A stretch of DNA of 64,000 nt, from NCBI GenBank assembly GCA_965214465.1, contig CBDCBX010000020.1:554363-618362 (forward strand), read 5' to 3'. Position numbers and translations under genes: made by a program. The stretch's first letter is position 1. Each line of letters begins with the position of its first letter. The stretch comes from Acidobacteriota bacterium. Lineage in GTDB: Bacteria > Acidobacteriota > UBA6911 > RPQK01 > CBDAPI01. This document shows, one piece after another, positions 9,400 through 63,694 of the stretch. The notes below the pieces were generated by a model. The model did no database searches. It saw only the letters and a program-made list of their open reading frames with translations, and was not told the DNA's origin.

Positions 9400-9473
9400 T
9401 CTTGAAGACTCCTCCAGTTTGCGACACTTGAGGCGTTGTTTCCTGAGAGGTTTAGAAAAAGGGAAACAGGGGA

Positions 9474-11477: not shown

Positions 11478-11530
11478 GTGCGCCCGGCAGGGCGCACCCA
11501 TTTGGAGATGAAAGTTCTCTACGAACCCGA

Positions 11531-11581
<51 letters not shown>

Positions 11582-11886
11582 TGAAGGAAGCCGCAGGCAA
11601 AGCGCTGGCCTGACGAACAGGAATCGCATATGAGGCGGACGTGCTGGATGAGAAGGCAAATATCTTCAAAGTCCAATACCTGTACGGAAAGCACGGACGT
11701 AGATGCGGCGGGCATAAGCGTGAAGGTGGGTGCGCATTACCCGGGGAGGTCTGCCAGTAGGCCATAGTGCTACTGTCGTCGAGAGGCGGCGGGATGAACT
11801 GGTAGAAGTCAGCCGAGGGCATATTACCTCCATCGACCGGAGGGAAGGCCCGAACGCGAAGAAACGGAAAGGAGACTCGAATTTCG

Positions 11887-12599: not shown

Positions 12600-12810
12600 G
12601 GGCCAAACCGGCCACTGATTCCGATTGAAACCGGCCACCTGTTCCGGGCCAATCCGGCCGGTGATTCCGGGGCAAAGTAGGCCACTTTGCCGGGCTTTTC
12701 CGGAATCGGTGGTCAGGTTAGCGGAAAGTTCCTGCCCTCAGGAGTTTGCGACGCTGGGCAACGCGGACTATCGTTGCTCCTTTTTCACTTAGAGAGGAAG
12801 AGGAGAACAG

Positions 12811-14373
12811 ATGGCCAATCGGAGGCTGCCCATGCGCAAGATCAAGGAGATTCTCAGACTACATTTTCAGGCCCACTTGTCAGCTCGCCAGATCGCTCGC
12901 AGCTGCTCGGTGTCTCGGGCTACCGTGGGTGATTACCTGAGCCGGACCCGGGCCGCCCAGCTCGACTGGAAACAGGTGGCCCAGATGAGCGAGGTCGAGC
13001 TGGAAGGACAGCTTTTTTCTCCTCCGGCTCCTCGGGGCCGCCACCGCTCTCCACCGGACTTTGCCTACGTTCACCGAGAGCTGCGGGCCAAGTCAGTCAC
13101 GCTGCAGTTGCTCTGGCAGGAGTACAAACAGGGTCATCCGGACGGCTACCAGTACTCGCAGTTTTGCGATCTGTACAACCGCTGGAGAGGAAAGCTCGAC
13201 GTGGTGCTGCGGCAAAACCACCGGGCCGGCGAGAAGATGTTCGTCGACTATGCCGGCCAGACGGTCGAGATTGTCGATCCCAAGACCGGTGAGATGCGTC
13301 AAGCCAACATCTTCGTGGCCGTCTTGGCGGCCAGTAACTACACCTATGCCGAAGCTACCGAAAGCCAGGATCTTGAATCCTGGATCGGAGCTCACGTGCG
13401 GGCCGTGGAGTTTTACGGTGGCACTACCCGGGTGGTGATCCCGGATAACACCCGCACGGCTGTCTCTCAGGCTTGCTTTTACGAGCCACAGATCAACCCC
13501 AGCTACGCCGAGTGGGCAGCCCATTATTCAGTGGCAGTCATCCCGGCCCGGGTGCGGGCTCCTCGGGACAAGGGGAAAGTCGAATCGGCCGTTTTGATCG
13601 TCGAGCGCTGGATCCTGGCCGCCCTGCGCAAGCGACGCTTCTTCAGCCTGGGTGAGCTCAATGCAGCCATCCACGAACTGCTTGGAGAACTCAACCGCCG
13701 GCCTTTCCGCAAACTTGAGGGCAATCGCCTCGAGCTCTTCCGGCGTCTGGATCAGCCCGCTCTCAGACCCTTACCCAGGATCCGTTATCAGCTGGCTCGC
13801 TGGAAGAAAGCCCGCGTCAACATCGACTACCACGTCGAGTTCGAGCGCCACTACTACAGCGTCCCCTATGCTCTGGTCCGTCAGCAGGTCGAGATCCGTT
13901 ACACCCAACACATCGTGGAGATCCTGCACCGGGGCCAGCGGGTGGCCTCGCATCGTCGCAACCGCGTGTCAGGAGCCGCCTCTACCTGCTCCGAGCACCG
14001 TCCACAGTGTCACCGCCGTTATCTGGAGTGGTCTCCTTCGCGGCTGATCTCCTGGGCTGCCAAGATCGGACCCCACTGTGGTGATCTGGTCGAGAAGATG
14101 CTCGCCTCTCGCCGCTATCCGGAACAGGCCTACCGCAGCTGCCTGGGACTGTTGCGGTTGGGCAAGACCTTCGGCGAGGATCGCCTGGAGGCCGCCTGCC
14201 GGCGGGCCCTGGCCTTCTCCACCTTCTCCTACCAGAGCGTCAAGTCCATTCTCAAGACAGGTCTGGACTCCCAACCATTACCCGAGACCCAACCACCACA
14301 ACCGGCTCTGGAACACTCGAACCTGCGCGGAGCCGACTACTTCACTTGTGAGGAAAACTTCCATGCTCATTAA
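12811..14373 (+). CDS. istA: IS21-family transposase
   Basis: 520 aa. N-terminal HTH (RQIARSCSVSRATVGDYL) then DDE core. Overlaps istB at the ATGCTCATTAA start/stop. Confidence 0.85.
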   Translation: MANRRLPMRKIKEILRLHFQAHLSARQIARSCSVSRATVGDYLSRTRAAQLDWKQVAQMSEVELEGQLFSPPAPRGRHRSPPDFAYVHRELRAKSVTLQLLWQEYKQGHPDGYQYSQFCDLYNRWRGKLDVVLRQNHRAGEKMFVDYAGQTVEIVDPKTGEMRQANIFVAVLAASNYTYAEATESQDLESWIGAHVRAVEFYGGTTRVVIPDNTRTAVSQACFYEPQINPSYAEWAAHYSVAVIPARVRAPRDKGKVESAVLIVERWILAALRKRRFFSLGELNAAIHELLGELNRRPFRKLEGNRLELFRRLDQPALRPLPRIRYQLARWKKARVNIDYHVEFERHYYSVPYALVRQQVEIRYTQHIVEILHRGQRVASHRRNRVSGAASTCSEHRPQCHRRYLEWSPSRLISWAAKIGPHCGDLVEKMLASRRYPEQAYRSCLGLLRLGKTFGEDRLEAACRRALAFSTFSYQSVKSILKTGLDSQPLPETQPPQPALEHSNLRGADYFTCEENFHAH

Positions 14374-15106
14374 CCAGACTCTCGAAAAACTTCACTCCAT
14401 GCGCCTGACCGGCCTGGCCGAGGCTCTCACCCAGCAACTCGAAGATCCCGACTCCTCCGTTCTCAGCTTCGAGGAGCGTATCGGCTGGCTGATTGATCGA
14501 CACTGGCTCTGGAGAGAGAACCAGGTCCAGGCCCGGCGCCTGAAAAACGCCCATCTCAAGGACAGCCAGGCTTGCCTCGAGGATATCGACTACCGTCCTG
14601 CCAGAGGACTGGATCGATCCCTCGTCCGTTCCCTGGCCACCTGCGACTGGATCACCAGACATCAGAATCTCATCCTGCTTGGCCCCTGCGGTGTGGGTAA
14701 GACCTTTCTGGCCTGTGCCTTCGCCCAACTGGCTATCCGCCAGGGCCACACAGCCTTCTATACCCGCCAGCCTGTACTCTTTCGAGAACTCTCCATAGCT
14801 CGCGCCGACGGGACTCTGCACAAACGCCTGGCAAAACTGGCCCGTGTCGATATCCTCATCGTCGATGACTTCGCCATGACGGCCTTGGCTGAGAGCGAAC
14901 GTCGTGACTTCCTCGAGATCTGCGAGGATCGTTACAACACTCGCTCCACCATCTTGATCAGCCAGATCCCCATTGCCGATTGGCACCAACAGATCGGTGA
15001 TCCGACTCTGGCCGACAGCATCTTAGACCGGCTCGTTCACAACGCCCATCGCCTGCAACTCGCAGGAGGTTCCATGCGAAAGCGTCTGGCGGCTTCTCAG
15101 GACTAA
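14363..15106 (+). CDS. istB: IS21-family ATP-binding helper protein
   Basis: Walker A LLGPCGVGKTFLA and Walker B ILIVDDF. Start ATG at 14363 overlaps the istA stop. The ORF-track start at 14078 is an in-frame upstream extension. Confidence 0.85.
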   Translation: MLINQTLEKLHSMRLTGLAEALTQQLEDPDSSVLSFEERIGWLIDRHWLWRENQVQARRLKNAHLKDSQACLEDIDYRPARGLDRSLVRSLATCDWITRHQNLILLGPCGVGKTFLACAFAQLAIRQGHTAFYTRQPVLFRELSIARADGTLHKRLAKLARVDILIVDDFAMTALAESERRDFLEICEDRYNTRSTILISQIPIADWHQQIGDPTLADSILDRLVHNAHRLQLAGGSMRKRLAASQD

Positions 15107-15421
15107 AGGCAAAAAGGCTATGGAAACTGCCGCCCTGTGCAAACCCATTCAGCGCTTTGCAGATCTGCTCAGGATTCCCGCACGTGGGTTCTCACAGGGC
15201 TTGGAAAACTCCTCGCTGCGCTCGGCAGTTTCCCACAGTTCCCACCGCCTCTACGACTACTTCACACACATCTTTATCGGAGGTTTCTTGAATGCCAATC
15301 GATCCAAGCTACATTGACTCAAAACGGCCACCTGGCACATCATGAAATCCCCAGCGTCGCTTCGCTCCGACCGGGTGGCCACTTTCCCCGGATTGGGTGG
15401 CCGGTTTCACCGGAATACGCA

Positions 15422-16174
15422 GATGCCGCAAGGCGGTCCTCTCTCTCCCGTGCTCTCCAATGTGCTACTGGATGAGCTGGACAAGGAACTGGAGAGGCGA
15501 GAACATGCTTTCTGCCGCTATGCTGATGATTGCAATGTCTATGTGCGGTCGCAGCGAGCCGGTGAGCGTTGGTCTCGTTGACACAGTTTCTGGAGAAGCG
15601 CCTCAAGCTGAGAGTCAACACTGCCAAAAGTGCAGTGGATCGCCCGTGGAGGCGAAAGTTCTTGGGTTATTCGATGACGGCGCACCGGGAAACTCGGCTG
15701 AAAGTGGCCGCTAGCTCAGTGCAACGTCTGAAGAAACGGCTCAAGGTGGCTTTTCGTCAAGGAAGGGGACGCAACCGGCAACGATTCATCGAAGAACTCC
15801 AGCCTCTGCTGCGCGGATGGGTACAATACTTCAAGCTGGCAGAGGTGAAAGGGACCTTTGAGGAATTGGACGGCTGGATTCGGCGGCATTTGCGCTGTCT
15901 GATCTGGCGTCAATGGAAACGAACCTGGACCCGGGCCAAGAACCTGAGGGCGCGGGGCCTGACGGAAAAACGTGCATGGAAGTCCGCGACCAACGGACGG
16001 GGTCCCTGGTGGAATGCCAGAGCCTCCCACATGCACGCAGCTTTTCCCAAGGCCTACTTTGATCGGTTGGGTCTCGTGTCGCTGCTGACGGAGCAGCGTC
16101 GGTTTCAGCGTTTTTCGCGAACCGCCGTGGTACGGAACCGTATGCCCGGTGGTGTGGGAGGACGGCAGGGGTGA
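15422..16174 (+). pseudogene. group II intron reverse transcriptase-maturase, C-terminal part (RT motif YADD plus maturase X domain)
   Basis: ...PQGGPLSPVLSNVLLDELD...FCRYADDCNVYV then a maturase-like region (GWVQYFKLAE...). Splicing out the IS restores ...ARREGMPQGGPLSP.... Confidence 0.8.
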
Positions 16175-16189
16175 CCCTGCCTCCTACCC
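16156..16189 (+). ncRNA. group II intron domain V (34-nt hairpin with GNRA tetraloop)
   Basis: GGGAGGACGGCAGGG-GUGA-CCCUGCCUCCUACCC: 14-bp stem, 3'-strand bulge, GUGA tetraloop. The IEP stop codon TGA (16172-16174) lies in the loop. Confidence 0.45.
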
Positions 16190-16398
16190 GATCCCTTCCA
16201 ACCACCGAATCGGCCCGCAAGGCCGTGAGGAAACAGTACTCGCCAGAGCACAACGCTTGTTTCCGGCCCGGGGTTTCTGTATTACCTTTGGAAGGCGTAA
16301 GCTGACATGGTGACCCATCGCTTCATCCTAAGCTGGAACTCTGAAACCAGGAGGCATGGTTCAAGGGGTGCGATAGGCGTAATCCAGACAGAAAAGGC

Positions 16399-17979
16399 AT
16401 GTTGATACTCGGAATTGGGGGCTGGCTGCATGATGGCTCGGCGGCGCTGGTACTTGACGGAAAGTGCGTTGCCGCCAGCGAGGAAGAAAAGTTGCTGCGG
16501 CAAAGGCACCCTGGTGGTTTTCCCGACCGGGCGGTGACGACCTGTCTGAAGATCGCCGGTGCCCGGCGAAAGGACATCGATATCGTTGCCCTTTCCAAGC
16601 CGCTTGCAGCCGGTAAAGAGGCCAGTGCTCTTTTGCATTTGAAGACACTCTTCCCCAATTCGAAAACGGTTATCGTCGATCACCACACTGCGCACGCTGC
16701 AGCTACCTTTTTCCCCTCCCCATTTGAGAATTCCCAGGTTCTGACGCTGGACCACCATGGTGACGTTTGCTGTGGAGCGACCTGGCAAGGTGCTGGAAAT
16801 CAGTTGCAGGCAATAGATGCAAGCTACTATCCAGACAGCCCCGCAGCTCTCTACAGCAAAGTCACAGAGTTGTTGGGCTTTCAGCCTGACTCCGAAGAGC
16901 ACAAGGTCCAGTGGCTGTCGGTCACTGGAGAGCCGAGGTTCAAGGAGATGTTTCTAGCGATCCTTGGTATGGACCGGAATTCACTCCCGAAGCTTGACCA
17001 TAGCTATCTTGATACCGGACGCACTACCCAGGGTGGCTTCAGCGAGCGTTTCTATCGTGAGCTGGACATCAATTCCGATGAGCTTCCGGGCGAGGGCATC
17101 AAAGCGGACGTGGCGGCGAGCATCCAAACAGCCGTTGCAGAGACCGTTGTGCGCATAGCTGGAGAAGGGAAGAACCTCTGCCTTGGAGGAGGTCTGGCCT
17201 ACAACGCCTTGCTGATCCAGAGCATTGAGGACGCCGGCCATTTTGAGAATGTCTGGGTCCAGCCGGTGACAGGGAACGCCGGGACGTCGCTTGGCAGCGC
17301 CCTGTTCGCACTCCACCAGAGCCAGCCCGACGCCGCAAGGCACGTCTTGCGCAACCTCTTCCTGGGTGAAACGTATGGCAGCGAAGAGATCAAGCGGGTG
17401 CTGGAGAATTGCAAACTGAGGTTCGGCTACCATCAGAGTGAGGGCGAGATGGTGAAAGCTGCAGTGCAGCAACTGACCGACAATAAGATCGTGGCATGGT
17501 TCCAGGGCCGAACTGAGTTCGGTCCTCGCGCACTAGGCAACCGCAGTATTCTGGCCTCACCTCGCAATCCTTATGCGACTCAAAACCTCAACGAGTACAT
17601 CAAACATCGTGAACCTTTTCGCAAGTTTGCGGCCTCGGTTCCAGAAGAGCTGGCCTCTGAGTACTTCGAGGTCAGTGACAATGCCCGGTTTCTGGCGACG
17701 GTAAGCCGCGTCAAGTCGAGTCACCGAGAAACATTCAGTCCGGCTTTGCTCGACGCTGACAGAATTCGGGTCCACGTGGTCTGCAGAGAGGAGAATCGGC
17801 TGTACTGGGAACTCCTGCAGGCGGTAGGGAATGCGAGTGGACTTCCTGTGGTCTACAACACCTCGTTCAACCTTTTCGGAGAGCCATTGGTCTCGGACCC
17901 CCGCTCAGCGGTTCGAAGTTTCTACTCTTCGGGAATCGATACCCTCTTCATCGGGCGCTTTTTCGTAGAGAAAGGGTAA
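16399..17979 (+). CDS. NodU/CmcH-family carbamoyltransferase
   Basis: 526 aa. N-terminus MLILGIGGWLHDGSAALVLDGKCVAASEEEK typical of carbamoyltransferases (NodU/CmcH/HypF-like). Confidence 0.75.
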   Translation: MLILGIGGWLHDGSAALVLDGKCVAASEEEKLLRQRHPGGFPDRAVTTCLKIAGARRKDIDIVALSKPLAAGKEASALLHLKTLFPNSKTVIVDHHTAHAAATFFPSPFENSQVLTLDHHGDVCCGATWQGAGNQLQAIDASYYPDSPAALYSKVTELLGFQPDSEEHKVQWLSVTGEPRFKEMFLAILGMDRNSLPKLDHSYLDTGRTTQGGFSERFYRELDINSDELPGEGIKADVAASIQTAVAETVVRIAGEGKNLCLGGGLAYNALLIQSIEDAGHFENVWVQPVTGNAGTSLGSALFALHQSQPDAARHVLRNLFLGETYGSEEIKRVLENCKLRFGYHQSEGEMVKAAVQQLTDNKIVAWFQGRTEFGPRALGNRSILASPRNPYATQNLNEYIKHREPFRKFAASVPEELASEYFEVSDNARFLATVSRVKSSHRETFSPALLDADRIRVHVVCREENRLYWELLQAVGNASGLPVVYNTSFNLFGEPLVSDPRSAVRSFYSSGIDTLFIGRFFVEKG

Positions 17980-18072
17980 CCCCTCGAGAGAAACGACGGT
18001 CCTGAATCACGGGATGGACTCGATGCTTCTCACCTCTTCAAGGAAGTTTTGGCCATTGTAAACGGGGAGGTC

Positions 18073-19847
18073 TGATTGGCGACAGTTAGAATTTCCCACG
18101 TATTGCCTCACTAAGAATCGAACCCAGTTCCGAACAGCTTATTGGTTCCTTACATCAGAAACAACGGGGCGACCGGAGCCGGACCCGCTTCGCGATCTTC
18201 TGCCGGAGCAACTGGGCGAGATTGGAACCCGATTTCGGAGGCTGTCGGCTCCACGCGAGCGATCTCGGCCTTGTAGAGCTGCTCCCTACGCCAGTCCCTC
18301 ACCCGTCGCTGCAGCGTCCGCAGTTGCCCATCGAAGAACCGACCGGGATAGCGTTGCTGAAGGCGAACGAAAAGCGCTTTGGCGGTTTGAGCGGGATTAA
18401 CTTCCAGTTGGACACGAACCTCTGGCCAGACTTCAGCAAAGGGATCCTTTCGAGTCCTCCATGTCCGGGGCTTTTTCGTCCGCCGATATCTTCTGATCTC
18501 TTTGGGTTCTTGTGAAGCGGTGATCTCGACAAGATACTTCCTGACGATTGCATCCATCTCTCTGGGGGAGTCGTTCCCTTCCAGTTCCCTTTGTCCGTTA
18601 GCAAAGGTCCAAAAATAGTCTTGGCGTCGCTCGAGCTCTTTGAGTAAGATCACCGGATCGAGCTTCCGGTAAAAACGCTCGATTCGCTCCCTCTTTCGCT
18701 TGGTGAGATAACCAGAAGCAATGATGCGCTGGTAAGGAGTTTGAGCTCGATCGTAGCGCTTCTTGACGCGTGCGCCGACGCGCTGCTTTTCGATCAGCTT
18801 CATCGAGGGCTGAAAGAAGTTCACATAGAGGCGTAGAATCTCATAAAGCTGAATCAGGGCCCGCCAGGCCCCCAGTCCCTCGTAGCGATCGTACCCGATC
18901 AGCCTTCTCACGACAGAGCCGTTCTTCTCTTCCACAAAGGCCTGATCGTTCTTTCGATTGACCCGGGAACGAGTGAAAGTGATCTGCTCTCTTTGGCAGT
19001 AGCGAAGCATCTCATAGTTGATGAACTCGCTGCCGTTATCCGTATCCAATCCCAGCAAAGGAACCGGGAGCCGGCCACGCAGGGAGTTCAGGGCGCCGAT
19101 CACGTCGGCTTCGCTGCGCCGCAGCAGGGCCACGCACTCGGTCCAGCCCGTTGCGACGTCCACCAGGACCAGCGTGTGCAGAAAACTACCGGCAGCACTG
19201 ACGCCGCAGTGAGCGACCAGGTCCGCTTCCAGAAACCCGGGTTGAAGATCGTCCCAGTCGGCGAAGGTCCGTACCTTGATCTGCTTTTTGAGTAAGCTTC
19301 CCGGCCGGGTTGTACTCACACCACGCTGATTGATTCTCTCGGTGGCCAGCAATCGATCAGCGGTGGCGGGGCTGATCGTCAGAAGCTTTCCCCGGACATC
19401 AGCGGGTAAGGACAAATGACCGTTCCTCTCCATCACCTCGATCAACTCGGGAAGAAAGGGAACCAGTCGCTTGGCGCAGATCCGGTTGGCCGTGGTCCAA
19501 AGGGTAACCAGTACCTGCTTGACTCGCTCATCGTATCGGGCGCGGCGGGGTCGCGAAGAACTAACGCTACCCGGCGGATTGTTCAACAGGGTAATGGCGT
19601 GTTTGCGACCGTAGCCGGTTGCCGCAACCAACTGATCCACGATCTGGCTCTTGATTCCTTTGCGGGCCGATGCGTAATCCTCCGCAGTGCGTGTCAACAA
19701 CTCTCGGCGCAACTCCAAACTCAACTTCTTCCTCAATTCGTCGCCTCCTCATCAAGTGTTCGGTTCGATTCTTGATGAGGCAACGGTCTCACATTAGTTC
19801 GATTTTGGATGAGTCAATGCGTGGGAAATTCTAACTGTCGCCAATCA
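18073..19847 (-). mobile_element. insertion sequence with DDE (rve) transposase, IS481/ISNCY-like
   Basis: About 46-bp imperfect terminal inverted repeats TGATTGGCGACAGTTAGAATTTCCCACG... at 18073 and the reverse complement at 19847 (TG...CA termini). Single 528-aa transposase ORF. No clear target-site duplication. Confidence 0.7.
18150..19736 (-). CDS. DDE-type integrase/transposase (rve core)
   Basis: 528 aa. N-terminal HTH region, catalytic core ...LGLDTDNGSEFIN.... Bounded by the IRs above. Confidence 0.75.
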   Translation of the reverse strand: MRKKLSLELRRELLTRTAEDYASARKGIKSQIVDQLVAATGYGRKHAITLLNNPPGSVSSSRPRRARYDERVKQVLVTLWTTANRICAKRLVPFLPELIEVMERNGHLSLPADVRGKLLTISPATADRLLATERINQRGVSTTRPGSLLKKQIKVRTFADWDDLQPGFLEADLVAHCGVSAAGSFLHTLVLVDVATGWTECVALLRRSEADVIGALNSLRGRLPVPLLGLDTDNGSEFINYEMLRYCQREQITFTRSRVNRKNDQAFVEEKNGSVVRRLIGYDRYEGLGAWRALIQLYEILRLYVNFFQPSMKLIEKQRVGARVKKRYDRAQTPYQRIIASGYLTKRKRERIERFYRKLDPVILLKELERRQDYFWTFANGQRELEGNDSPREMDAIVRKYLVEITASQEPKEIRRYRRTKKPRTWRTRKDPFAEVWPEVRVQLEVNPAQTAKALFVRLQQRYPGRFFDGQLRTLQRRVRDWRREQLYKAEIARVEPTASEIGFQSRPVAPAEDREAGPAPVAPLFLM

Positions 19848-25481: not shown

Positions 25482-26933
25482 CCTAGCAGCCCGTGGTGAA
25501 AGTCGCCTCTCGGTCAGCCATGGCCAATAGACTTGTGCCATGTCGATGGGCAAGCGTAAGAGACAGAGGCAGAGCGAGATGTGGGTGCCGGCAACAGAGC
25601 TGGCCAAAGCGCCGGGACACCCTTTTTACCAACGCCTGAACCGAGTGCTGGGCAAGCACGGTTTCGATGATTTTGTGGAAGCGGAATGCGCCGCTTTCTA
25701 TGCCCCCAGCCGAGGGCGGCCCGGCCTGGCACCGGGCATCTATTTCCGGCTGCTGCTGGTGGGTTACTTCGAAGGGTTGAGCTCGGAGCGAGGCATTGCC
25801 TGGCGAGCCGCTGATTCGCTGGCGCTGCGCGGTTTTCTGGGACTGAATCTGAGTGAGTCACCTCCGGATCATTCGACCATCTCCAGGACCAGGCGACTGA
25901 TCGATGTGGCCACGCATGAGGCGGTTTTCTCCTGGGTGCTGAAGCGGGTAGCCGAGAGCGGGTTATTGAATGGCAAGACGATCGGCATCGATGCCACCAC
26001 GCTGGAAGCCAATGCGGCGCTGCGCAGCATCGTGAGACGAGACTCCGAGCAGGGCTACGAAGAGTTCTTAACGGAGCTGGCAGTAGCCTCCGGCATCCAG
26101 ACGCCTACTCGAGAAGATCTGGCCCTACTGGACCGCAAGCGAACCGGCAAGGGATCGAACCAGCAGTGGAAGCACCCGCAGGATGGGGATGCGCGCATCG
26201 CCAGGATGAAGGATGGGCGGACGCATCTGGCGCACAAGGCAGAGCATGCAGTGGATCTGGAGACGGGAGCCATCGTCTCGGTCACGGTGCAAGGAGCGGA
26301 TCGAGGCGATACGCAAACGATGGTCAAGACACTGATACAGGCGGCCGAGCAGGTGGAACAAGCGCTGCCGAAGGGATCGGGCATCGAAGAGGTGGTGGCC
26401 GACAAGGGATATCACAGCAGCGAGCGGATGGTGGATTTAGAAGCGCTGGGACTGCGCAGCTATGTGAGCGAACCGAAACGAGGGAAAAGACGCTGGAGAG
26501 GAGACACTCAGGCCCGTGATGCGGTCTATGGGAACCGGCGACGAATCCGGGGTCGGCGAGGACGGCAACTTTTACGACAACGAGGTGAGCTACTGGAGAG
26601 ACCGTGTGCTCACCTTTACGAGACCGGCGGGATGAGACGGGTTCACGTTCGGGGCCATGAGAATGTCTTGAAGCGGCTGCTGATTCAGGTGAGCGGATTC
26701 AATCTGGGGCTGCTGATGCGCCAGCAGTTGGGTGTGGGCACGCCGCGGGGGCTGCAGGGGCGGATTTGCCTCGTCTTGCTCCTCATTTTGTCGCTGTGGA
26801 AGCGTCTGAAGGGCCTGTTTGGCTTGATTCCGACCGCCCAGACTCAAAAGTCCCGGTCAACGCTCCCGTCGCTTCTGCCACCGGTCCGCTCGGTCTGAAG
26901 TCTGAAAACCTATTTGCACCACGGGCTGCTAGG
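25482..26933 (+). mobile_element. IS5/IS1182-like insertion sequence
   Basis: Terminal IRs CCTAGCAGCCCGTGGTG (25482-25498) and the reverse complement at 26917-26933. Single transposase ORF. A solo copy of the right end recurs at 43230-43272. Confidence 0.65.
25540..26898 (+). CDS. IS5/IS1182-family DDE transposase
   Basis: 452 aa. N-terminal region (FYQRLNRVLGKHGFDDFVE, InsH-N-like) and DDE_Tnp_1-like core (IGIDATTLEANA ... ADKGYHS). Confidence 0.75.
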   Translation: MSMGKRKRQRQSEMWVPATELAKAPGHPFYQRLNRVLGKHGFDDFVEAECAAFYAPSRGRPGLAPGIYFRLLLVGYFEGLSSERGIAWRAADSLALRGFLGLNLSESPPDHSTISRTRRLIDVATHEAVFSWVLKRVAESGLLNGKTIGIDATTLEANAALRSIVRRDSEQGYEEFLTELAVASGIQTPTREDLALLDRKRTGKGSNQQWKHPQDGDARIARMKDGRTHLAHKAEHAVDLETGAIVSVTVQGADRGDTQTMVKTLIQAAEQVEQALPKGSGIEEVVADKGYHSSERMVDLEALGLRSYVSEPKRGKRRWRGDTQARDAVYGNRRRIRGRRGRQLLRQRGELLERPCAHLYETGGMRRVHVRGHENVLKRLLIQVSGFNLGLLMRQQLGVGTPRGLQGRICLVLLLILSLWKRLKGLFGLIPTAQTQKSRSTLPSLLPPVRSV

Positions 26934-54839: not shown

Positions 54840-55559
54840 ATGAGCCACCTCTTTCTGGTCCGGCACGGTCAGGCCACTTTTCCCTATCTGGACCAGGATC
54901 ATCTGACCGGAATTGGGCAGGCTCAGGCCCGGCTGCTTGGTTGTTTCTGGGCAGCTCAGGGAATGGAATTCGACCAGATCTACACGGGACCCGGCGGCCG
55001 TCACCAGGAGACCGCCGCCCTGGCCGGCAAAGTGCTGCTTGATCAGGGTCTGCAGTGGCCGGAGCCAGTCGTTCTCGAGTCACTGGACGAATACCAGGCA
55101 GGAGCGCTTCTCAACCTGGGAGTGGCCCGATTTCGCGAGGTTGACCAGCGCATCGGTGAACTGTGGGATGCTTCCAAGTCGGCTGCCGATCCGGTCGAAA
55201 AAGAAAGAGCCTGGAACCGCATGTTTGAGGCCATCCTCCACGCCTGGGCCCATCAAGAGGTCGAACTGGACGGCGTCGAGCCATGGGGAGATTTCTGTGT
55301 TCGGGTGGAGGGGGGAATCTCCGAGATCGTCAAGCAGGGCGGAAAAGGTCGGCTCGTGGCTGCCTTTACCTCGGGCGGACCCATTGGAGTCGCCGCCCGG
55401 CACGCCCTGCAAACCTCAACCGAGAAGACTCTGCAAATGGCCTGGATGGTTCGCAACACCTCCTTGAGCGAGTTTCTCTTCTCTGATGACCGTTTCACCT
55501 TGAGTACTTTCAATGCCTTCCCACATTTCCGGGAGCCGTCCGTACTGACGTATCGTTAA
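54840..55559 (+). CDS. histidine phosphatase (phosphoglycerate-mutase-like) family protein
   Basis: LFLVRHGQA RHG catalytic motif. Confidence 0.75.
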   Translation: MSHLFLVRHGQATFPYLDQDHLTGIGQAQARLLGCFWAAQGMEFDQIYTGPGGRHQETAALAGKVLLDQGLQWPEPVVLESLDEYQAGALLNLGVARFREVDQRIGELWDASKSAADPVEKERAWNRMFEAILHAWAHQEVELDGVEPWGDFCVRVEGGISEIVKQGGKGRLVAAFTSGGPIGVAARHALQTSTEKTLQMAWMVRNTSLSEFLFSDDRFTLSTFNAFPHFREPSVLTYR

Positions 55560-55581
55560 CGAGCACCAGGAGGAAGCCTTT

Positions 55582-56694
55582 ATGGATTTCAGCATAGACC
55601 CCCAAACACAGGAGCTCCTGGAAAAGATCCAGGACCTCGTCGAGCGGAAACTCTATCCCCTCGAAGCGGACCTGGAAATAAGCGGTATCAAGAGTCTCTT
55701 ACCCAGACTCAGCGAGATTCGAGAAGAGGTAAGAGAACTGGGCTTCTGGTGTCCCCACATCTCCAGGGAACACGGCGGCATGGGCCTCAGCCTGGTGCAG
55801 CACGCACTGGTAAGCGCCGTCCTGGGCCGCTGCCAGCTCGGCCACTATGTGTTCAATTGCCAGGCCCCCGACGCTGGGAACATGGAGATTTTGATCAAGA
55901 ACGGCACCTCAGAACAGAAGCAGACCTTCCTGGAGCCTCTGCTGGAGGGCCGCATTCGAAGTTGCTTTGCCATGACCGAGCCCGAGCGGCCGGGATCGAA
56001 TCCGACCTGGATGGAGACCAGCGCAGTCAAAGATGGCCAGGACTACGTCATCAATGGGCACAAGTGGTTTACCAGCGCAGCCGACGGAGCCAGCTTTGCC
56101 ATTGTGATGGCTGTGACCGACGCCGAGGCCGGTCGCTACGATCGAGCCAGTATGATCCTGGTGCCCACGGACACTCCCGGGTTCCGGCGACTGCGAAACA
56201 TCCCCATCATGGGTCATGTGGGAGAGGACTACTTCAGCCATGCGGAGGTCGTCTTCGAGGACTGTCGGATTCCCCGCGAGAATCTTCTGGGAGCAGAGGG
56301 AGCCGGTTTCAGAATCGCCCAGCAGCGGCTGGGCGCTGGTCGAATCCACCACTGCATGCGCTGGATCGGTATCGGTGAGCGCTCGATCGAGCTGATGTGC
56401 CAGCGGGTCGCAGACCGCGAGCTGGCCCCGGGCCGTCCCCTGGGTTCGAGACAGATCGTGCAGACCTGGATTGCTGACAGCTGGGCGGAGATCCGGGCGG
56501 CGCGCCTCATGGTGCTCGATGCTGCCTGGAAGATGGAGCAAGACGGTCAGCTGGGGGCTCGCAAAGAGATTTCCGCCATCAAGTTTTATGCGGCCAACGT
56601 ACTTCTCAAGGTGCTGGATCGCGCCATCCAGGCCCACGGAGGCTTGGGCGTTACCAGCGATACCCCTCTGGCCCGGATTATGCATGAGATCTGA
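55582..56694 (+). pseudogene. acyl-CoA dehydrogenase, N-terminal 370 aa (gene split by IS1380-like insertion; C-terminal 32 aa at 58341-58439)
   Basis: ACAD fold motifs. ...TPLARIMHEI then stop from inserted DNA. The fragment at 58341-58439 (ERAGRIYDGPDEVHRIVVARELLRPYGVKVTF*) aligns gaplessly with the human MCAD C-terminus ([30 protein letters not shown]). Confidence 0.7.
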
Positions 56695-58340
56695 ATCCGA
56701 GTGAGATTTGGGCCCATAAAAAGAGCCGTAGCTCTCTGATATAAAAGGGTTTACACAAACAAGACTCTAACCAGGAGCTACGGCAATGTTAAGAGCAGTC
56801 TGCCAGAATACCCTGCCATTTCACAGCCACAGAAAGATCACGGCGCGTTTTGATGGGGGAGCCTCACTTCCGACGCAGGATGGTTGTTGTTTGGATCGGT
56901 GGATCGGCAACATCGGCTCTGCGAGGGCTTCAGTTCGTGTATTTCGGAGAGTCGAGACCAACGCTACATTCGTCATGATCTGTTGAAGTTGATCCGACAA
57001 CGAGTCTTGCAGATCGTGGCCGGCTACGAAGACTGTAATGACGCCGATACGCTGCGCTCGGATCCGATGCTCAAAACCGTCTGTGATCAGTTGCCGGAGA
57101 GCGATCCGGATTTGGCCACGCAGCCGACTTTCTCCCGCTTGGAGAACTCCGTCACCAGGAAGGATCTGATGCGTTTGAGCCAGTGGCTGCTAGGCCGTTA
57201 TGTGCGCTCCCTGAAGAAAAGACGTCCCGGTAAGATCATCCTGGATCTGGACAGTACCGACGACCACACCCACGGCCAGCAGGAGTTCTCCTTCTACCAC
57301 GGGTATTACCGAAGCCACATTCTGCATCCTTTGCTGATCTTCGATGCCGACACGGGAGACCTGGTGTGTGCCGTGTTGAGACCTGGCAACAAGGGAGCTG
57401 CCTCTCACATCGTGCCCATTCTGAAGCGAGTCGTGGAGGCTATCCGACAAGGAGTGGGGACGGATGTCGAGATTGAGATTCGGGCCGACAGCGGCTTTGC
57501 CACGCCGCGGCTCTACGAGTTCTGTGAGGCTGAAGAGAATCAACTCCAGTATGTCATTGGGTTAAGTCGAAACCCTCGCCTGCAGCGAGTGGTCGAGCCC
57601 CTGCTGGATTCGACTCGGGAAAGGTTCCTTGAGCTGGAGGAAAAACAGCGTCAGTTTGACGAGTTTCTTTATCGAGCCAACAGCTGGGATCGATCTCGTC
57701 GCGTCATCGTCAAAGTGGAGGTCGATCAGCGCGGGATCAATCGTCGCTTTGTGGTCACCAACCGGGACGATCTCTGCTCCCAATCACTTTATGACCACTA
57801 CACAAACCGAGGACAGACCGAAAACTTCATCAAGGCCTTCAAGAATCATCTGAGCATGGACCGACTCAGCTGTCATCGATTCCTGGCCAATCAGTTTCGA
57901 CTCCTCCTGCATGCCCTGGCTTACCAGATGTTCGTGCGCCTGCGCGACTATCTGCACGGGACCCCCTGGCACAAGCTCGAAATCGAAACCTTACGTCGTC
58001 GTGTCCTCAAGATCGGGGCCCGGATCCGACAAACCACTCGACGCATCTGGGTCCATCTTTCCTCAGCCTTTCCCGAACAACCCCTCTTCCACCTCGTCTT
58101 GAGTCGTCTCAACTCCAGCTAGCCTCTCCCAGCTCCCCGAAAAACCGCTTCCGATACTCACCCAGGCCCAGATCTGTCTGAAATTCACTCCCCAACCACT
58201 TCAAACGCCTCGCCAACCGATATTCTTCGCAAATCCGCCTGTCACACCTGTCCGCTTTCGAGTTGAGCCACTTCTCGAGTCGTTTTTCAACTCCGGACTA
58301 CGGTTCTTGCATAATCCGGGCTGGCGGCCTTCTTTCGAAA
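56695..58340 (+). mobile_element. IS1380-family-like insertion sequence with frameshifted transposase (boundaries approximate)
   Basis: Lies between ACAD codon ...I (56689-56691) and R (58345-58347). Weak terminal IR candidates around 56712-56745 and 58290-58325 (AGARCCGTAG core). No clean target-site duplication found. Confidence 0.55.
56786..58122 (+). pseudogene. IS1380-family DDE transposase with a frameshift near 56880-56990
   Basis: The N-terminal KITARFDGGASLPTQDGCCLDRWI (ORF 56786..56986) is in a different frame from the main body (56884..58122), which carries IAGYEDCNDADTLRSDP and YTNRGQTENFIKAFK motifs. Confidence 0.65.
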
Positions 58341-58439
58341 CGAACGAGCGGGTCGCATTTATGACGGACCTGACGAAGTCCATCGCATCGTGGTGGCCCG
58401 TGAACTGCTCAGGCCGTATGGGGTCAAGGTGACTTTCTA
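58341..58439 (+). pseudogene. acyl-CoA dehydrogenase C-terminal remnant
   Basis: See 55582-56694. Confidence 0.65.
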
Positions 58440-58485
58440 GCTGCTAAGGCCCCCAACCTTCAGGCGCAACTGGAACAGGTAAAAA

Positions 58486-59574
58486 GTGGTTACAAGAGAC
58501 TCCCAGGAGAACAAGTTCCTCGACTTGAGCACCACGGTGCGCCCTGGGGAGGAGTTGGACCTGACCCGGCTGGAACCCTACCTGAGAAATCGGTTCCCCC
58601 GGGAATCCGGTCCACTGATCGTGGAGCAGTTCCCTCAGGGACACTCCAATCTGACCTACCTGGTTCGTCTGGGAGATCGGGAACTCGCACTGAGACGCCC
58701 TCCCTTTGGCAGCAGGGTGAAGACGGCCCATGACATGGGCCGCGAATACCGCGTCCTGTCCAGGCTGCACAAGGCCTATCCCCCGGCCCCGCGCCCCTTC
58801 TTTTACTGTGACGATGAGTCCGTACTGGGAGCCCCCTTCTATGCCATGCAGCGGGTCCGGGGGGTGATCATGCGCAAGGACCTTCCACCCGGACTGGAGA
58901 TCCCGCCCGAGACAGCTCGGCGAATGTCCGAATCTTTCATCGACAACCTGACGGAGTTGCACGGATTGGATTACGAGGCCGTTGGCCTGGGCAACCTGGG
59001 CAAACCGGAGGGGTTTGTGGCCAGACAGATATCCGGCTGGATCAAGCGCTATGAGCGATCCCGAACCCACGAACTGGAAGGAGTGGAGAAAATCTCATTG
59101 TGGCTGACGGAGCAAATGCCGCCGGAAGCCGGAAGCGCCCTGATCCACAACGACTACAAGTACGACAATGTCGTCCTCGACGCGGCTGACCTGACACGGA
59201 TCGTTGGCGTTCTGGACTGGGAAATGTGCACTCTGGGGGATCCGCTGATGGACCTGGGAACGGCCCTGAACTACTGGGTGAATGCTGACGATCCGGACGA
59301 CCTGCAGCAGATTCGGTTTGGCCTCACTACCTTGCCGGGAACTCTCACGCGGAGAGAACTGGCGGATCGATACGCCGAGAAATCCGGCCAGGATATTTCC
59401 AACCTTGCGTATTACTACGCGTTCGGCCTCTTCAAGACAGCCGTCATCTGCCAGCAGATTTACTACCGATACCACCACGGTCTCACCAAGGACGAGCGCT
59501 TTCCCGCGTTTCTCGACGCCGCCCGAATCATGATGAAAACGGCAGTCCGGGTTTCCGAAACCGGAATCGTCTGA
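58486..59574 (+). CDS. phosphotransferase (APH/choline-kinase-like) family protein
   Basis: IHNDYKYDNVVLD catalytic loop and VLDWEMCTLGDP motif. Adjacent to ACAD, as in ACAD10/11-type arrangements. Confidence 0.75.
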   Translation: MVTRDSQENKFLDLSTTVRPGEELDLTRLEPYLRNRFPRESGPLIVEQFPQGHSNLTYLVRLGDRELALRRPPFGSRVKTAHDMGREYRVLSRLHKAYPPAPRPFFYCDDESVLGAPFYAMQRVRGVIMRKDLPPGLEIPPETARRMSESFIDNLTELHGLDYEAVGLGNLGKPEGFVARQISGWIKRYERSRTHELEGVEKISLWLTEQMPPEAGSALIHNDYKYDNVVLDAADLTRIVGVLDWEMCTLGDPLMDLGTALNYWVNADDPDDLQQIRFGLTTLPGTLTRRELADRYAEKSGQDISNLAYYYAFGLFKTAVICQQIYYRYHHGLTKDERFPAFLDAARIMMKTAVRVSETGIV

Positions 59575-59617: not shown

Positions 59618-60391
59618 CTACCAGGCTGTCATGCCTCCGTCCACGACCAGCACATGCCCGGTCACGTAGTCGGAAGCCCGGGAGGCGAGGAAGACCGCGG
59701 CCCCCTTCAGATCGTCCTTTCCGCCTACCCGGCCCAGAGGGATAGAGGGAAGAATATGGTCTTTGCGGTTCTCGATGATCCAGCCGGACATTTGAGTTGG
59801 AAACCAGCCGGGAGCGATGGCGTTCACCTGAACATTGTGGGGGGCCCAGCCACAGGCCAAATCTTTGGTGAGGGCTGCCACTCCGCCCTTGGATGCGCTG
59901 TAGCCGGAAGCCTGCATGATCTCCGGGCGCCCGCCCCCCAGGGCTGCGGTCGAGGCGATATTGATGATCTTCCCCTGGCGGCGTTCGATCATCGTTCTGG
60001 CTACCGCCTGGGCACAGAGAAAGGTGCCGGTCAGATTGGTCTGAATCACCTGGTTCCACCGCTCCAGCGGCATCTCCTCAGCCGGGGCACCCCAGGCCGT
60101 TCCGGCGTTGTTGACAAGGATGTCAATCTTTCCAAAGCTGTCCATTGTGAAGTCCACGAGAGCCGTAATGTCCTCTGGGATCGTCACGTCACAGCCATGA
60201 GCCAGAGCTCGAATCCCGTGATTCTCGAGTGCAGTGGCAGCCTCCTGACAGCGTTCCTGCTTACGAGCGCTGAGCACCAGGCTGGCGCCCATCTCGGCAA
60301 AACCTTCGGCGATCTGTCTGCCCAGGCCAGTCCCCCCCCCGGTAATGATCGCCACGCGCCCAGAAAGGTCGAACAGCTCCTTTGTATTCAT
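59618..60391 (-). CDS. SDR-family oxidoreductase
   Basis: VAIITGGGTGLGRQIA Rossmann motif and YSASKGG catalytic motif. Confidence 0.8.
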   Translation of the reverse strand: MNTKELFDLSGRVAIITGGGTGLGRQIAEGFAEMGASLVLSARKQERCQEAATALENHGIRALAHGCDVTIPEDITALVDFTMDSFGKIDILVNNAGTAWGAPAEEMPLERWNQVIQTNLTGTFLCAQAVARTMIERRQGKIINIASTAALGGGRPEIMQASGYSASKGGVAALTKDLACGWAPHNVQVNAIAPGWFPTQMSGWIIENRKDHILPSIPLGRVGGKDDLKGAAVFLASRASDYVTGHVLVVDGGMTAW

Positions 60392-61915: not shown

Positions 61916-63694
61916 TTAGTTGTGAAGTCGGAATTCGGACTCGGAGCTTTCTTTGTAGCCGTAGCGAACGGCCCGCGCCCGCTTTGGACTGCTGTTCGCC
62001 AACTCGATCGGTTCAGTGTAGAGCCTCCAGCGAGGTGTCTCACCCTCCTCGGTCGAGTAGGCAATGGACGCCCCTTCGGTGCGACAGGAGAGTGTGACTT
62101 TCATAGAACGGCCCAGCTCTCCTCCTGACGGGTGGATCGAGGGAGCGGCGGTTGCGGGTTGCTCCCCACCCGGCCACATCTGCTCCATCATCTCGTCCTC
62201 CGGTATGCGACCCATGTCTCCAACCTCGGTCCGCCACGCCTCCAGAGCCTGGCGGAGGCGCGCAAGGGTCTGCTGGTGCCCGGGGTCCTCGGCCAGGTTT
62301 TCGATTTCATGGGGGTCCGAGTACAAATCGTAAAGCTCTTGCGGCGGCTTTTGGGATCGGAACCAGAGCTGCTGCGGCCCTTCCAGACGGCCTTCTTGAT
62401 GCAGGCGCAGCAACTCCTGCATGAGAGGCATACGGTTCCGATAGCGGATGGTCTGGACATAGGGCTTCTCGGGCTGAAAGTGGAGGATATACTTGAAGCG
62501 CTCATCGCGGGCCGCACGCATCCTGTCGTAGGCCTCGTCCATTCGATCCCGGGCCGCGAAAACATACTCCCTGGCAGGACCGGCGGCAGCCCCCAGAAAG
62601 GCTTTGCCCTGTATGTGCTCGGGGATCTCCACCCCGGCCAGAGAGGGGACCGTGGGCGCAAAGTCGACGAAACTGACCAGCCGATCGGTGACGGAGCCCG
62701 GAGCGACTTCGCCGGGCCAGCGGACGAACATGGGAACGTGGAGCCCGGAATCGTACACCCATCTCTTGGCCCGGGGGAGTCCGTCTCCATGGTCGCTGAA
62801 AAAGAAAACGATGGTGTTGCCCGACAGGTCGTCCTCTGCCAGCTGCTCCAGAATTTGTCCCACCCAGATATCGACCCGAGTGATGTTGTCGTAGTGGCGG
62901 GCCAGGTCGGTCCTCACCACCGGAGTGTCCGGGTAGTAGGGGGGCACCTCGACCCGCGCCGGATCCAGGATTGGCTCTTCGTCCGGATTGGGCCAGACCC
63001 GGCTCTCATGGGTACGAGCGGAGTTGAAGACGGCAAAGAAAGGCTGGCCCGGTGCTCGACCACGCCAGTGGGCCGTCCGGCTGGACTCGTCCCAGGCCGT
63101 CAGCGGTGTTCCGAACTGGTAGTCGGTCTTGGCGTTGTTGGTGCAGTAGTATCCGGCCGCCCGAAGAGACTCGGTAAAGGTCTTCACATCCGGAGGGGGA
63201 ACCGCCAGATAGGGGCCCGGAAGACCGGGCCCCTGGTTGCTGGTACGCATGTGGTGGGTGCCAATAGAGATCGGGTAGGTCCCCGTGATCAGGGCCGAGC
63301 GGCTGGGAGCACACACCCCCGAAACGGAAAAAACACGGGTAAAGGTCATCCCTTCCGAAGCCAGCCGGGGGCTTAGATCCTCAACCGTGATCCAGAGGAT
63401 GTTGGGGCGGGTTGCGACGGCGGGGACGGGACCGGTAGTGAACAGGCAGTGAGTGCAAGCGCAAGAAGGTTCCGGCACCTCCGCACCTGTGGCCCGATGG
63501 CTCGTTTGCGGTCCCTCCCACTTTCCGATCTCAGATTGCACCGCCGCTTGCGTTACTGGCGAGACAGCCAGGGAATGATCATGGAGACTTTCTTCCGGTA
63601 GCTGCGCTAGGCCTCGCCGTCGAAGACCACGTGATTGACGAGTCCATAGACTACGGCGAAAACCCTGCCCATTTCCTATCCTTCTGGTTACCAT
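61916..63694 (-). CDS. sulfatase (arylsulfatase/formylglycine-dependent family)
   Basis: RPNILWITVEDL...SGVCAPSRSALITGTYP: the C-x-P-x-R formylglycine motif. The N-terminal roughly 90 aa of the ORF are atypical, so the true start is probably internal (no convincing signal peptide seen). Confidence 0.75.
   Translation of the reverse strand: MVTRRIGNGQGFRRSLWTRQSRGLRRRGLAQLPEESLHDHSLAVSPVTQAAVQSEIGKWEGPQTSHRATGAEVPEPSCACTHCLFTTGPVPAVATRPNILWITVEDLSPRLASEGMTFTRVFSVSGVCAPSRSALITGTYPISIGTHHMRTSNQGPGLPGPYLAVPPPDVKTFTESLRAAGYYCTNNAKTDYQFGTPLTAWDESSRTAHWRGRAPGQPFFAVFNSARTHESRVWPNPDEEPILDPARVEVPPYYPDTPVVRTDLARHYDNITRVDIWVGQILEQLAEDDLSGNTIVFFFSDHGDGLPRAKRWVYDSGLHVPMFVRWPGEVAPGSVTDRLVSFVDFAPTVPSLAGVEIPEHIQGKAFLGAAAGPAREYVFAARDRMDEAYDRMRAARDERFKYILHFQPEKPYVQTIRYRNRMPLMQELLRLHQEGRLEGPQQLWFRSQKPPQELYDLYSDPHEIENLAEDPGHQQTLARLRQALEAWRTEVGDMGRIPEDEMMEQMWPGGEQPATAAPSIHPSGGELGRSMKVTLSCRTEGASIAYSTEEGETPRWRLYTEPIELANSSPKRARAVRYGYKESSESEFRLHN

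Follow-up and report, generated by a model that had tools for sequence, protein, structure and literature searches.

An IS1380-family insertion in an ACAD10/11-type acyl-CoA dehydrogenase gene of an Acidobacteriota bacterium

Background

Insertion sequences (IS) of the IS1380 family, of which ISEcp1 is the best-known member, are described in ISfinder as elements of about 1.6-2 kb with short terminal inverted repeats (IRs) starting with CC and a target site duplication (TSD) of 4-5 bp. The eukaryotic piggyBac transposons, which are distant relatives of the family, have CCC...GGG termini and duplicate a TTAA target.

The acyl-CoA dehydrogenases (ACADs) ACAD10, ACAD11 and LvaC form a clade marked by a catalytic aspartate at the place where the usual ACADs have a glutamate, together with an Arg/His/Arg helix, and an Asp-to-Asn mutant of the ACAD domain was inactive (PMC12440821). 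ACAD10 is a three-domain protein made up of phosphatase, kinase and ACAD. The lva operon of P. putida encodes the kinase LvaA, the small protein LvaB, the ACAD LvaC, the SDR LvaD and the acyl-CoA synthetase LvaE, and it combines a 4-hydroxyacyl-CoA kinase with a 4-phosphoacyl-CoA-eliminating ACAD, as do mammalian ACAD11 and ACAD10. Catabolism of 4-hydroxyacyl-CoA has been proposed as the role of the bacterial operon (PMC12440821, PMC11342911), and phosphorylation of alkylglycerols is the competing proposal (PMC13596139). Here we describe a locus within a 64 kb stretch of Acidobacteriota DNA, called the window below, in which a gene of this ACAD type is interrupted by an IS.

Results and Discussion

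Boundaries of the inserted element

The element is 1649 bp long and occupies positions 56672..58320 on the + strand; its ends were set by the IRs, the TSD and the limit of homology to loci with an empty site. The left terminal IR, CCCGGATTATGCA (56672..56684, + strand), pairs with a right IR at 58308..58320 (- strand; TGCATAATCCGGG on the + strand). These 13-bp repeats are perfect, 16 of 17 positions are complementary when the pair is extended, and a search for the 13-mer at zero mismatches found only the two element ends in the 64 kb window. Directly outside the repeats lie two matching 4-bp copies of CTGG, at 56668..56671 and 58321..58324, while a single CTGG is present at the empty site in loci L081, L082 and L083. 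The sequence-only reading had placed the ends of the element at about 56695 and 58340 and had seen no obvious TSD, and both points are corrected by the CTGG copies flanking the repeats. Other registers, namely a 5-bp duplication or an IR beginning at G56671 or C56673, were tried and rejected on account of mismatched flanks; the flanks match only for CTGG and an IR start at 56672. Annotation of the element should carry the corrected ends.

No further copies of the element were found in the 64 kb window. A scan for promoters and terminators across the element gave nothing above shuffled expectation, and it is thus uninformative on polarity towards the downstream kinase gene or on an outward promoter; the insertion might or might not affect kinase expression.

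The disrupted acyl-CoA dehydrogenase gene

The 5' part of the ACAD10/11-type gene lies at 55582..56671 (+ strand) and contains codons 1-363 and the first base of codon 364. It hits the Pfam families Acyl-CoA_dh_N, _M and _1, and as far as position 56672 it shares 99.7-99.9% identity with L082 and L083, two conspecific loci. The displaced 3' remnant, read in the same direction, picks up some 1.65 kb further on, at 58325..58440 (+ strand). It opens with the second and third bases of codon 364, followed by AFFRNERAGRIYDGPDEVHRIVVARELLRPYGVKVTF and the stop codon, and it holds the catalytic Asp377. A split gene with a remnant in the same orientation had been recognised from the sequence before, but the split had been put 32 codons before the stop and the gene end at 58439, whereas the break falls inside codon 364, 37 residues are lost and the stop codon ends at 58440.

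As sequenced, the ACAD open reading frame (ORF) runs from 55582 to 56694 and ends prematurely after 370 aa. The product consists of 364 native residues and a tail, RIMHEI, encoded by the left inverted repeat of the element, so that the read-through sequence (A)RIMHEI runs to the stop codon at 56692-56694; these residues had been mistaken for native ACAD sequence. Ala364 is kept by chance, being encoded by GCC in the interrupted copy and by GCG in the native gene. When the element and one copy of CTGG were removed in silico, a 401-aa ACAD ORF was obtained. The restored protein has the three-domain fold, matching Acyl-CoA_dh_N, _M and _1 in Pfam, and its C-terminal Acyl-CoA_dh_1 domain covers profile positions 1-150 of 150; the encoded 370-aa product is without the end of this domain. 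The splice suggested earlier, joining 55582-56691 to 58345-58439, is in frame, of the right length and apparently gapless because both of its junctions are displaced 20 nt rightward, but it puts the IS-encoded ARIMHEI in place of the native AAFFRNE and was rejected; the TSD-defined junction is used instead.

The closest solved structures to the ACAD were 4hr3, human ACAD11 (2wbi) and mouse ACAD11 (8v3u), with E values from 1e-83 to 1e-86 (7e-86 for 2wbi and 1.6e-83 for 8v3u), whereas every other ACAD class gave 1.9e-52 or worse. Residues R249, H257, R260 and D377 align with R626, H634, R637 and D753 of mouse ACAD11, D377 falling on chain index 752 of the 8v3u alignment, which is D753 in the numbering of PMC12440821. 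By these matches the disrupted gene is assigned to the ACAD10/ACAD11/LvaC clade, and conversion of 4-phosphoacyl-CoA to 2-enoyl-CoA is its predicted chemistry. Since the last 37 residues are gone, the catalytic aspartate D377 among them, the truncated enzyme is almost certainly dead. A single pseudogene should be annotated here, combining the 370-aa ACAD call with the short ORF that follows it.

Comparison with uninterrupted loci

The excised window sequence was compared with the ACAD genes of related assemblies. It is identical to that of L083 at 1206/1206 nt and to that of L082 at 1204/1206 nt, and the flanks of these two loci are 99.7-99.9% identical to the window with 0 gaps. The ACAD of L081 (93% amino acid identity) is intact and syntenic. 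The reconstructed empty site reads ...CCCCTCTGGCGGCC.... Because excision gives the conspecific allele base for base and the 13-mer is unique in the window, the insertion is more than a chance arrangement. The uninterrupted gene is present in assemblies of other samples whose flanking sequences match the window at 99.7-99.9% identity, which points to a very recent, strain-specific event.

More than 500 intact-looking relatives or copies of the element were found in six Acidobacteriota MAG assemblies, the majority of them at CTAG sites, and its protein cluster has 1723 members. Such repeats invite misjoins, and an assembly chimera with a repeat copy misplaced inside the ACAD gene has to be considered. 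A misjoin would not yield a precise 4-bp target duplication around complete IRs, however, and the conspecific locus is colinear with the DNA on either side of the element, the two sides joining precisely at the TSD, which makes a chimera very improbable.

Taken as a whole, the locus is very probably explained by insertion of an IS1380-family element into an ACAD10/11-type gene. On this account a 1649-bp element transposed into CTGG within codon 364 of a 401-codon ACAD-family gene, duplicating the tetranucleotide on insertion. The gene hit is the middle one of a conserved histidine phosphatase-ACAD-APH-type kinase operon, and the outcome is a 370-aa product minus D377, with the downstream kinase gene left intact.

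The transposase gene and its apparent frameshift

The transposase gene starts at ATG 56786, and its N-terminal segment, MLRAVCQNTLPFHSHRKITARFDGG (56786..56859, + strand), which ends in ...KITARFDGG, is out of frame with the body, SLTSDAGW...SRLNSS (56860..58122, + strand; stop codon TAG 58120-58122), as the sequence-only reading had noticed. The near-identical intact relatives P0121, P0130 and P0142 begin with the same residues as the window transposase, and P0121 and P0130 read FDGGSLTSDAGW uninterrupted across the frameshift site. No further stop or frameshift was found in the transposase body. The site itself, about 70 nt into the gene, is a run of five G residues at 56855..56859 (+ strand) with a 1-nt deletion. 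All of the other copies compared (81/81) have six nucleotides here, either GGGGGG or GGAGGG, and the four further loci L084, L085, L095 and L096 have G6. A metagenome scan for G5 and G6 variants gave two matches, both G6, and no second G5 copy.

With one G restored, a transposase of 445 aa is obtained that matches the NCBIfam IS1380 model NF033539 at profile positions 2-418 of 419 (381 bits vs a cutoff of 180) and the Pfam model PF13701 (DDE_Tnp_1_4) with 486 bits vs a cutoff of 34.7. These scores confirm the IS1380-like identity claimed from the sequence alone. The single uninterrupted ORF of about 430-460 aa characteristic of the family is missing from the window copy; the family assignment stands, and the copy is defective as sequenced. 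In this form it cannot yield a complete transposase. Should the deletion be real, the copy would be non-autonomous, and sister copies could still mobilise it in trans via its intact ends.

Programmed -1 ribosomal frameshifting or transcriptional slippage, which regulates the transposase in IS1 and IS3, would also account for two overlapping frames, since these meet at the G-rich sequence GAT GGG GGA, where a shift of -1 would connect the two. This explanation is effectively refuted by the 81/81 relatives, in each of which one continuous 445-aa ORF runs through six bases at the site. The NCBIfam and Pfam IS1380 models likewise match a single continuous protein, and G5 followed by AGC is not known as a slippery heptamer of the classical X XXY YYZ type.

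Apart from one missing G, the window copy is essentially the same as its closest relatives. G6 is found in copies with at least 99.7% identity over the shared segments, and the rest of the element is intact, so the lesion should be either a very recent mutation or a mistake of assembly. The earlier statement that the IS is itself decaying was right in that the reading frame is broken, but it was overstated, one G being the sole lesion and the rest of the ORF, the IRs and the TSD being intact. It is possible, though somewhat less likely than not, that the insertion is real and the frameshift a homopolymer consensus error, in which case the element would be intact and autonomous and nothing would be decaying. 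The lesion is exactly one G short of the G6 in those near-identical copies, a loss of the commonest kind among assembly errors, in an otherwise flawless element. Multi-copy repeats are hard to polish, and related assemblies show private indels in their IS copies and are tagged as low coverage in their contig names (2x, 11x and 12x). On the other side, runs of G are also genuine mutational hot spots, and in a comparison of about 38 kb of unique sequence the window and independent conspecific assemblies showed no coding indels, the discrepancies being intergenic except for one single-base gap at an HSP edge (window position 19887) that is unplaced against genes. With the exception of that gap, the comparison suggests that the per-base indel accuracy of the window is high. 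The insertion in the ACAD gene holds under both readings.

Relatives of the element and their targets

In several Acidobacteriota MAGs the lineage has multiplied to dozens of copies in each genome. The 80 highest-scoring loci out of more than 500 yielded 79 full-length relatives. All 79 have termini identical to those of the window element and an intact 445-aa ORF, a count that is biased toward intact copies because the best-scoring loci were taken and is therefore unusable as a decay rate. An exact 4-bp TSD was detected in 61/79 of this best-scoring set, mostly CTAG, CTAA or TTAG, and CTGG in one case. The sharp preference for CTAG makes the lineage a handy marker of strain-level dynamics. 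The nearest named relatives in the PLSDB annotation were of the ISAzs25 and ISAzs3 families from Azospirillum sp. B510. Amino acid identity to these, the closest elements with a name among the plasmids compared, is only about 40%, so the element represents an unnamed IS1380 lineage.

The operon and its neighbours

The first gene of the triad, at 54840..55559 (+ strand), encodes a 239-aa protein of the histidine phosphatase superfamily (Pfam His_Phos_1, E value 2.9e-19). A His_Phos_1 gene is also located immediately upstream of the ACAD gene in L081, L082/L083, L086, L087/L088 and L089/L090. The third gene, at 58486..59574 (+ strand), encodes an apparently intact APH-fold kinase of 362 aa (Pfam APH, E value 5.8e-48). 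The conserved core of the operon is thus His_Phos_1, ACAD and APH.

The kinase matched the structure PDB 9o56 (E value 4e-115) and the ACAD11 kinase domain (E value 3e-47). Its residues R70, E87, H221-N-D223-Y-K225, N228 and D244-W-E246 align to R61, E78, D214, K216, N219, D234 and E236 of 9o56, the residue numbering of which agrees with that of the C. thermarum enzyme, whose catalytic residues have been described (PMC13596139). The HxDxK loop, the Asn and the DWE metal-binding motif are all present, together with an Arg/Glu pair instead of Lys/Glu.

An SDR oxidoreductase gene (257 aa; 59618..60391, - strand; Pfam adh_short, NCBIfam PRK08213 subfamily, 352 bits) is convergent with the kinase gene. 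In the window it is on the opposite strand, and its position differs in each relative examined; the SDR is a neighbour rather than a constant member of the module. The proposal of an ACAD10/11-style module of ACAD, kinase and SDR accordingly holds for the ACAD/APH pair, which is nearest to the ACAD11 domains and carries the signature residues, and fails for the SDR. No AMP-binding, LvaE-type acyl-CoA synthetase gene adjoins the module in the window, while one is found nearby in L087 and L089.

Taken alone, the finding is routine: one strain of an uncultured bacterium rich in IS has had a metabolic gene disrupted by such an element. The main practical use of the finding lies in annotation. A wider reading, which we consider unlikely but worth stating, is that the three-gene operon, found in Acidobacteriota, a Pirellulales genome and other lineages, is a split bacterial counterpart of ACAD10 with a non-homologous phosphatase. 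If this were true, the strain with a dead ACAD and an intact kinase would form, with its intact conspecifics, a natural near-isogenic test pair. Such a pair could reveal a role that the kinase and phosphatase play without the ACAD, such as the alkylglycerol/ether-lipid activity that ACAD10 has recently been claimed to have, as against 4-hydroxyacyl-CoA catabolism alone. The ACAD10/11/LvaC family has recently been de-orphaned, and the histidine phosphatase and kinase context may help to sort the functional proposals.

Comparison with known systems

The element agrees with the IS1380 family in its DDE transposase, which matches both the IS1380 equivalog HMM and DDE_Tnp_1_4, in the single ORF of about 445 aa seen in its relatives, and in its overall size of about 1.65 kb. 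Its 13-bp IRs opening with CC, its length of 1649 bp and its 4-bp duplication of CTGG all lie within the description of the family. It differs from the named IS1380 elements in the strong CTAG/YTAR target preference of its lineage and in the massive expansion of that lineage in a few Acidobacteriota MAGs, and the window copy differs from its IS1380 relatives by the 1-nt deletion in the transposase gene. Like piggyBac, the element has CCC...GGG termini and its lineage duplicates a palindromic 4-bp target, in this case CTAG; the likeness is a lead at most, the window element being a bacterial IS with another target sequence.

The window ACAD shares the catalytic Asp and the clade-specific Arg/His/Arg helix with ACAD11, ACAD10 and LvaC, but differs from ACAD11 and LvaC in being cut short before that Asp. 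The HxDxK and DWE motifs occur in the adjacent kinase, whose nearest match is the ACAD10/11 kinase domain, as they do in ACAD10, ACAD11 and LvaA (PMC13596139). Kinase and ACAD are encoded by separate, unfused genes as in lva, in contrast to mammalian ACAD10/11. The window has homologues of two members of the lva gene set, the kinase and the ACAD, and the adjacent SDR gene, which may or may not correspond to LvaD, is on the opposite strand. The third conserved gene of the window operon encodes a histidine phosphatase, a gene that lva is without, whereas ACAD10 has a HAD domain instead.

Interruption of the acyl-CoA dehydrogenase gene

The acyl-CoA dehydrogenase (ACAD) gene has undergone an ordinary event, a recent insertion in one strain of an unnamed IS1380-family element at CTGG, which cut short an enzyme of the ACAD11/LvaC type ahead of the catalytic Asp. 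A 370-aa ACAD-family ORF (55582-56694) ended in ...DTPLARIMHEI*, and its remnant frame (...AAFFRNERAGRIYDGPDEVHRIVVARELLRPYGVKVTF*, TAG at 58438-58440) was found in the same orientation about 1.65 kb downstream, a split that the sequence-only reading had recognized. A search for inverted repeats (IRs) returned a single pair bracketing the entire insert, 56671-56687 and 58305-58321, complementary at 16 of 17 positions. When read base by base, the perfect IR core was CCCGGATTATGCA at 56672-56684, with its reverse complement at 58308-58320 and CTGG adjoining it on each side (56668-56671 and 58321-58324); no alternative register with matching flanks was present around this core. Without mismatches, the 13-mer occurred nowhere in the 64 kb window beyond these two sites. 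The IR pair, the CTGG flanks and the restriction of the 13-mer to two sites thus set the ends at 56672 and 58320, giving a 1649-bp element bounded by IRs of 13 bp and flanked by a 4-bp target-site duplication (TSD). The sequence-only reading had reported no obvious TSD, missing the CTGG outside the IRs, and had set both junctions 20 nt to the right of their true positions.

Excision of the element with one CTGG (55582-56671 joined to 58325-58440) gave a 1206-nt ORF of 401 codons (...GVTSDTPLAAFFRNERAGRIYDGPDEVH...) that matched all three ACAD domains of Pfam, with the C-terminal domain unbroken over profile positions 1-150 of 150. The break fell within codon 364 (GCG native, GCC interrupted, alanine either way), so the encoded product consists of 364 native residues followed by RIMHEI from the left IR and has lost 37 residues, not the 32 codons first estimated. 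Because both junction shifts were equal, the splice proposed earlier was in frame, of the right length and apparently gapless, but it put the IS-encoded ARIMHEI in place of the native AAFFRNE.

Empty sites in close relatives

The kinase encoded downstream was identical in protein sequence on contigs from other samples. In two close relatives of the locus, L083 (ERZ25074053, a 5.68-Mb contig) and L082 (ERZ28669063), the 401-aa ACAD gene was uninterrupted and the flanks were 99.8-99.9% and 99.7-99.8% identical to the window, respectively, with no gaps. The L083 gene equalled our reconstruction at 1206/1206 nt, and that of L082 at 1204/1206 nt with no amino acid changes. Homology of the window to both loci ended at 56672 and restarted at 58321, with an overlap of 4-5 nt as the TSD predicts. 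In the more distant, syntenic L081 (93% amino acid and 91% nucleotide identity) the gene was also intact and CTGG was single. Since the empty sites are intact in all three loci, the insertion is a recent, strain-level event.

The IS1380-family element and its relatives

Between the ACAD pieces lay a 412-aa transposase body ORF (56884-58122), and just upstream, in another frame, a short ORF from ATG 56786 reading MLRAVCQNTLPFHSHRKITARFDGG..., confirming that the N-terminus and the body are out of frame. Extending the G5 run (56855-56859) by one G fused the pieces into a 445-aa protein. The restored transposase scored 381 bits against the NCBIfam 'IS1380 family transposase' profile (cutoff 180; positions 2-418 of 419), bearing out the IS1380-like identity read from the sequence, and 486 bits against Pfam DDE_Tnp_1_4.

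More than 500 relatives were found in a scan of species-representative genomes. The best 80 of them (L001-L080; 96-97% protein identity) all lay within six Acidobacteriota MAG assemblies, complete chromosomes among them, and 79 of the 80 were full-length in DNA (94-95% identity) with termini likewise CCCGGATTATGCA...TGCATAATCCGGG. Exact 4-bp TSDs flanked 61 of these 79 copies; the targets were overwhelmingly CTAG (41), with CTAA in 9, TTAG in 5 and CTGG in one copy besides that of the window. In the remaining 18 the two 4-bp flanks differed, as where CTAG stood opposite CTAA; either point mutation or recombination between copies could account for this. One protein cluster at 90% identity comprised 1723 member sequences. 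Among the named elements of the plasmid collection, those of the ISAzs25 and ISAzs3 families came closest, with an identity of about 40%, and, judged against that collection, the element is an unnamed lineage of the known IS1380 family.

A near-identical copy at L095:2887-4629 (ERZ25071132 ctg819279_11x_l) showed about 99.8% identity over the shared 3' 1.26 kb, with G6 and TSD CTAG. It carried a 93-bp internal tandem duplication, resulting in a 476-aa transposase, and its neighbours (RepA_C, ParA-like and RelE/HTH genes) formed a plasmid-like context.

The transposase frameshift

Where the window has five G residues, 81 of 81 other copies had six bases (GGGGGG or GGAGGG). G6 was also present in two metagenome matches (L084, L085) and in the near-identical copies L095 and L096, and two near-identical intact transposases (P0121, P0130) matched the restored protein exactly through FDGGSLTSDAGW. 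Judged from these alignments, the lesion appears to be the loss of 1 nt from a homopolymer, private to this copy. Programmed frameshifting was rejected because each relative is a single ORF. The frameshift may be an assembly error, as the site is a homopolymer inside a multi-copy repeat and the coverage of the sister assemblies was modest. However, when about 38 kb of the window's unique sequence was set against independent conspecific assemblies, no coding-sequence indel appeared, only one single-base and one 17-bp indel, both intergenic, and a single-base alignment-edge gap (window 19887) unplaced with respect to genes. We consider that the deletion is probably a real mutation. Over about 22 kb of unique DNA, the sole indel differences from the conspecific contig were of 17 bp and 1 bp, at window 41016 and 28617, both between called genes, the gap at 19887 apart.

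Elsewhere the transposase ORF was free of defects, and IRs and TSD alike were perfect. Description of the element as decaying was correct in that the frame is broken as sequenced, but too strong whether the 1-nt homopolymer deletion is real or an error. The window copy is at most very young and non-autonomous, and sister transposases could still use its intact ends.

Other variation and mobile elements in the window

The region at about 6424-18124 contained an IS21-type pair (rve and IstB), group II intron RT/maturase fragments and a further rve transposase, and was only 97.5-99% identical to the conspecific loci L092, L093 and L094, from which numerous small indels set it apart. To the left of about 12586, L092 had the same context as the window (TonB-dependent receptor, PIN) and L093 and L094 another (MBOAT, GMC oxidoreductase, TIR), which suggests a second strain-level rearrangement beside mobile elements. 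An IS5-like transposase ORF at 25540-26898 (452 aa as listed) corresponded in the conspecific L091-L094 to a 439-aa gene with DUF772 and DDE_Tnp_1. The genome was rich in several IS families. The sulfatase gene, one 592-aa ORF at 61916-63694, was represented in the 93%-related L081 by two genes (243 and 294 aa; L081:13576-15205), either by frameshift or by assembly error in L081.

The truncated enzyme and its gene module

The solved structures closest to the restored ACAD were mycobacterial ACAD 4hr3, human ACAD11 2wbi and mouse ACAD11 8v3u/8v3v (E 1e-83 to 1e-86), while classical ACADs all scored 1e-52 or worse. R626, H634 and R637 on one helix, together with the catalytic D753, are ACAD10/11 features that only LvaC shares, and an Asp-to-Asn mutant lost ACAD activity (PMC12440821). 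In the alignment to 8v3u, whose PDB sequence index is one off from the numbering of that paper, these residues corresponded to R249, H257, R260 and D377 of the window ACAD. As D377 sits in the displaced remnant, the 370-aa product lacks the catalytic base and the terminal helix, and would be expected to have lost its function.

The downstream gene (58486-59574) encodes an APH-fold kinase whose best solved relative was 9o56 (E 4e-115), with the kinase domain of ACAD11 next (E 3e-47). Its R70, E87, D223, K225, N228 and D244-W-E246 aligned with the catalytic set of the C. thermarum ACAD10-type kinase (PMC13596139), and the kinase looks intact. For the family, two activities have been proposed: phosphorylation of 4-hydroxyacyl-CoA with subsequent elimination (PMC12440821, PMC11342911), and phosphorylation of 1-O-alkylglycerol (PMC13596139).

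The ACAD gene adjoined a His_Phos_1 gene and the APH kinase gene, all three in the same orientation, in all relatives examined, namely L081-L083, a Pirellulales genome (L086), two loci carrying P0028 (L087, L088; Candidatus Angelobacter sp., NCBI name) and L089 and L090 of another lineage. The SDR was convergent and downstream in the window, upstream in the same orientation in L086 and several genes off in L087, and the immediate cluster of L089 lacked it. Of the ACAD10/11-style module proposed earlier, the ACAD and kinase therefore stand, whereas the SDR, with its unstable position, gives way to the constant histidine phosphatase. In L089 a second, long (592-aa) ACAD directly 3' of the kinase was split into 249-aa and 394-aa pieces (L089:8310-10767) separated by a small ISL3-like transposase fragment, and was intact at L090:8310-10088; this is an independent disruption associated with an IS in this gene neighbourhood. 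The three-gene arrangement (window 54840-59574), conserved in several lineages, is a parallel to ACAD10 with its phosphatase, kinase and ACAD domains, although the phosphatases are non-homologous.
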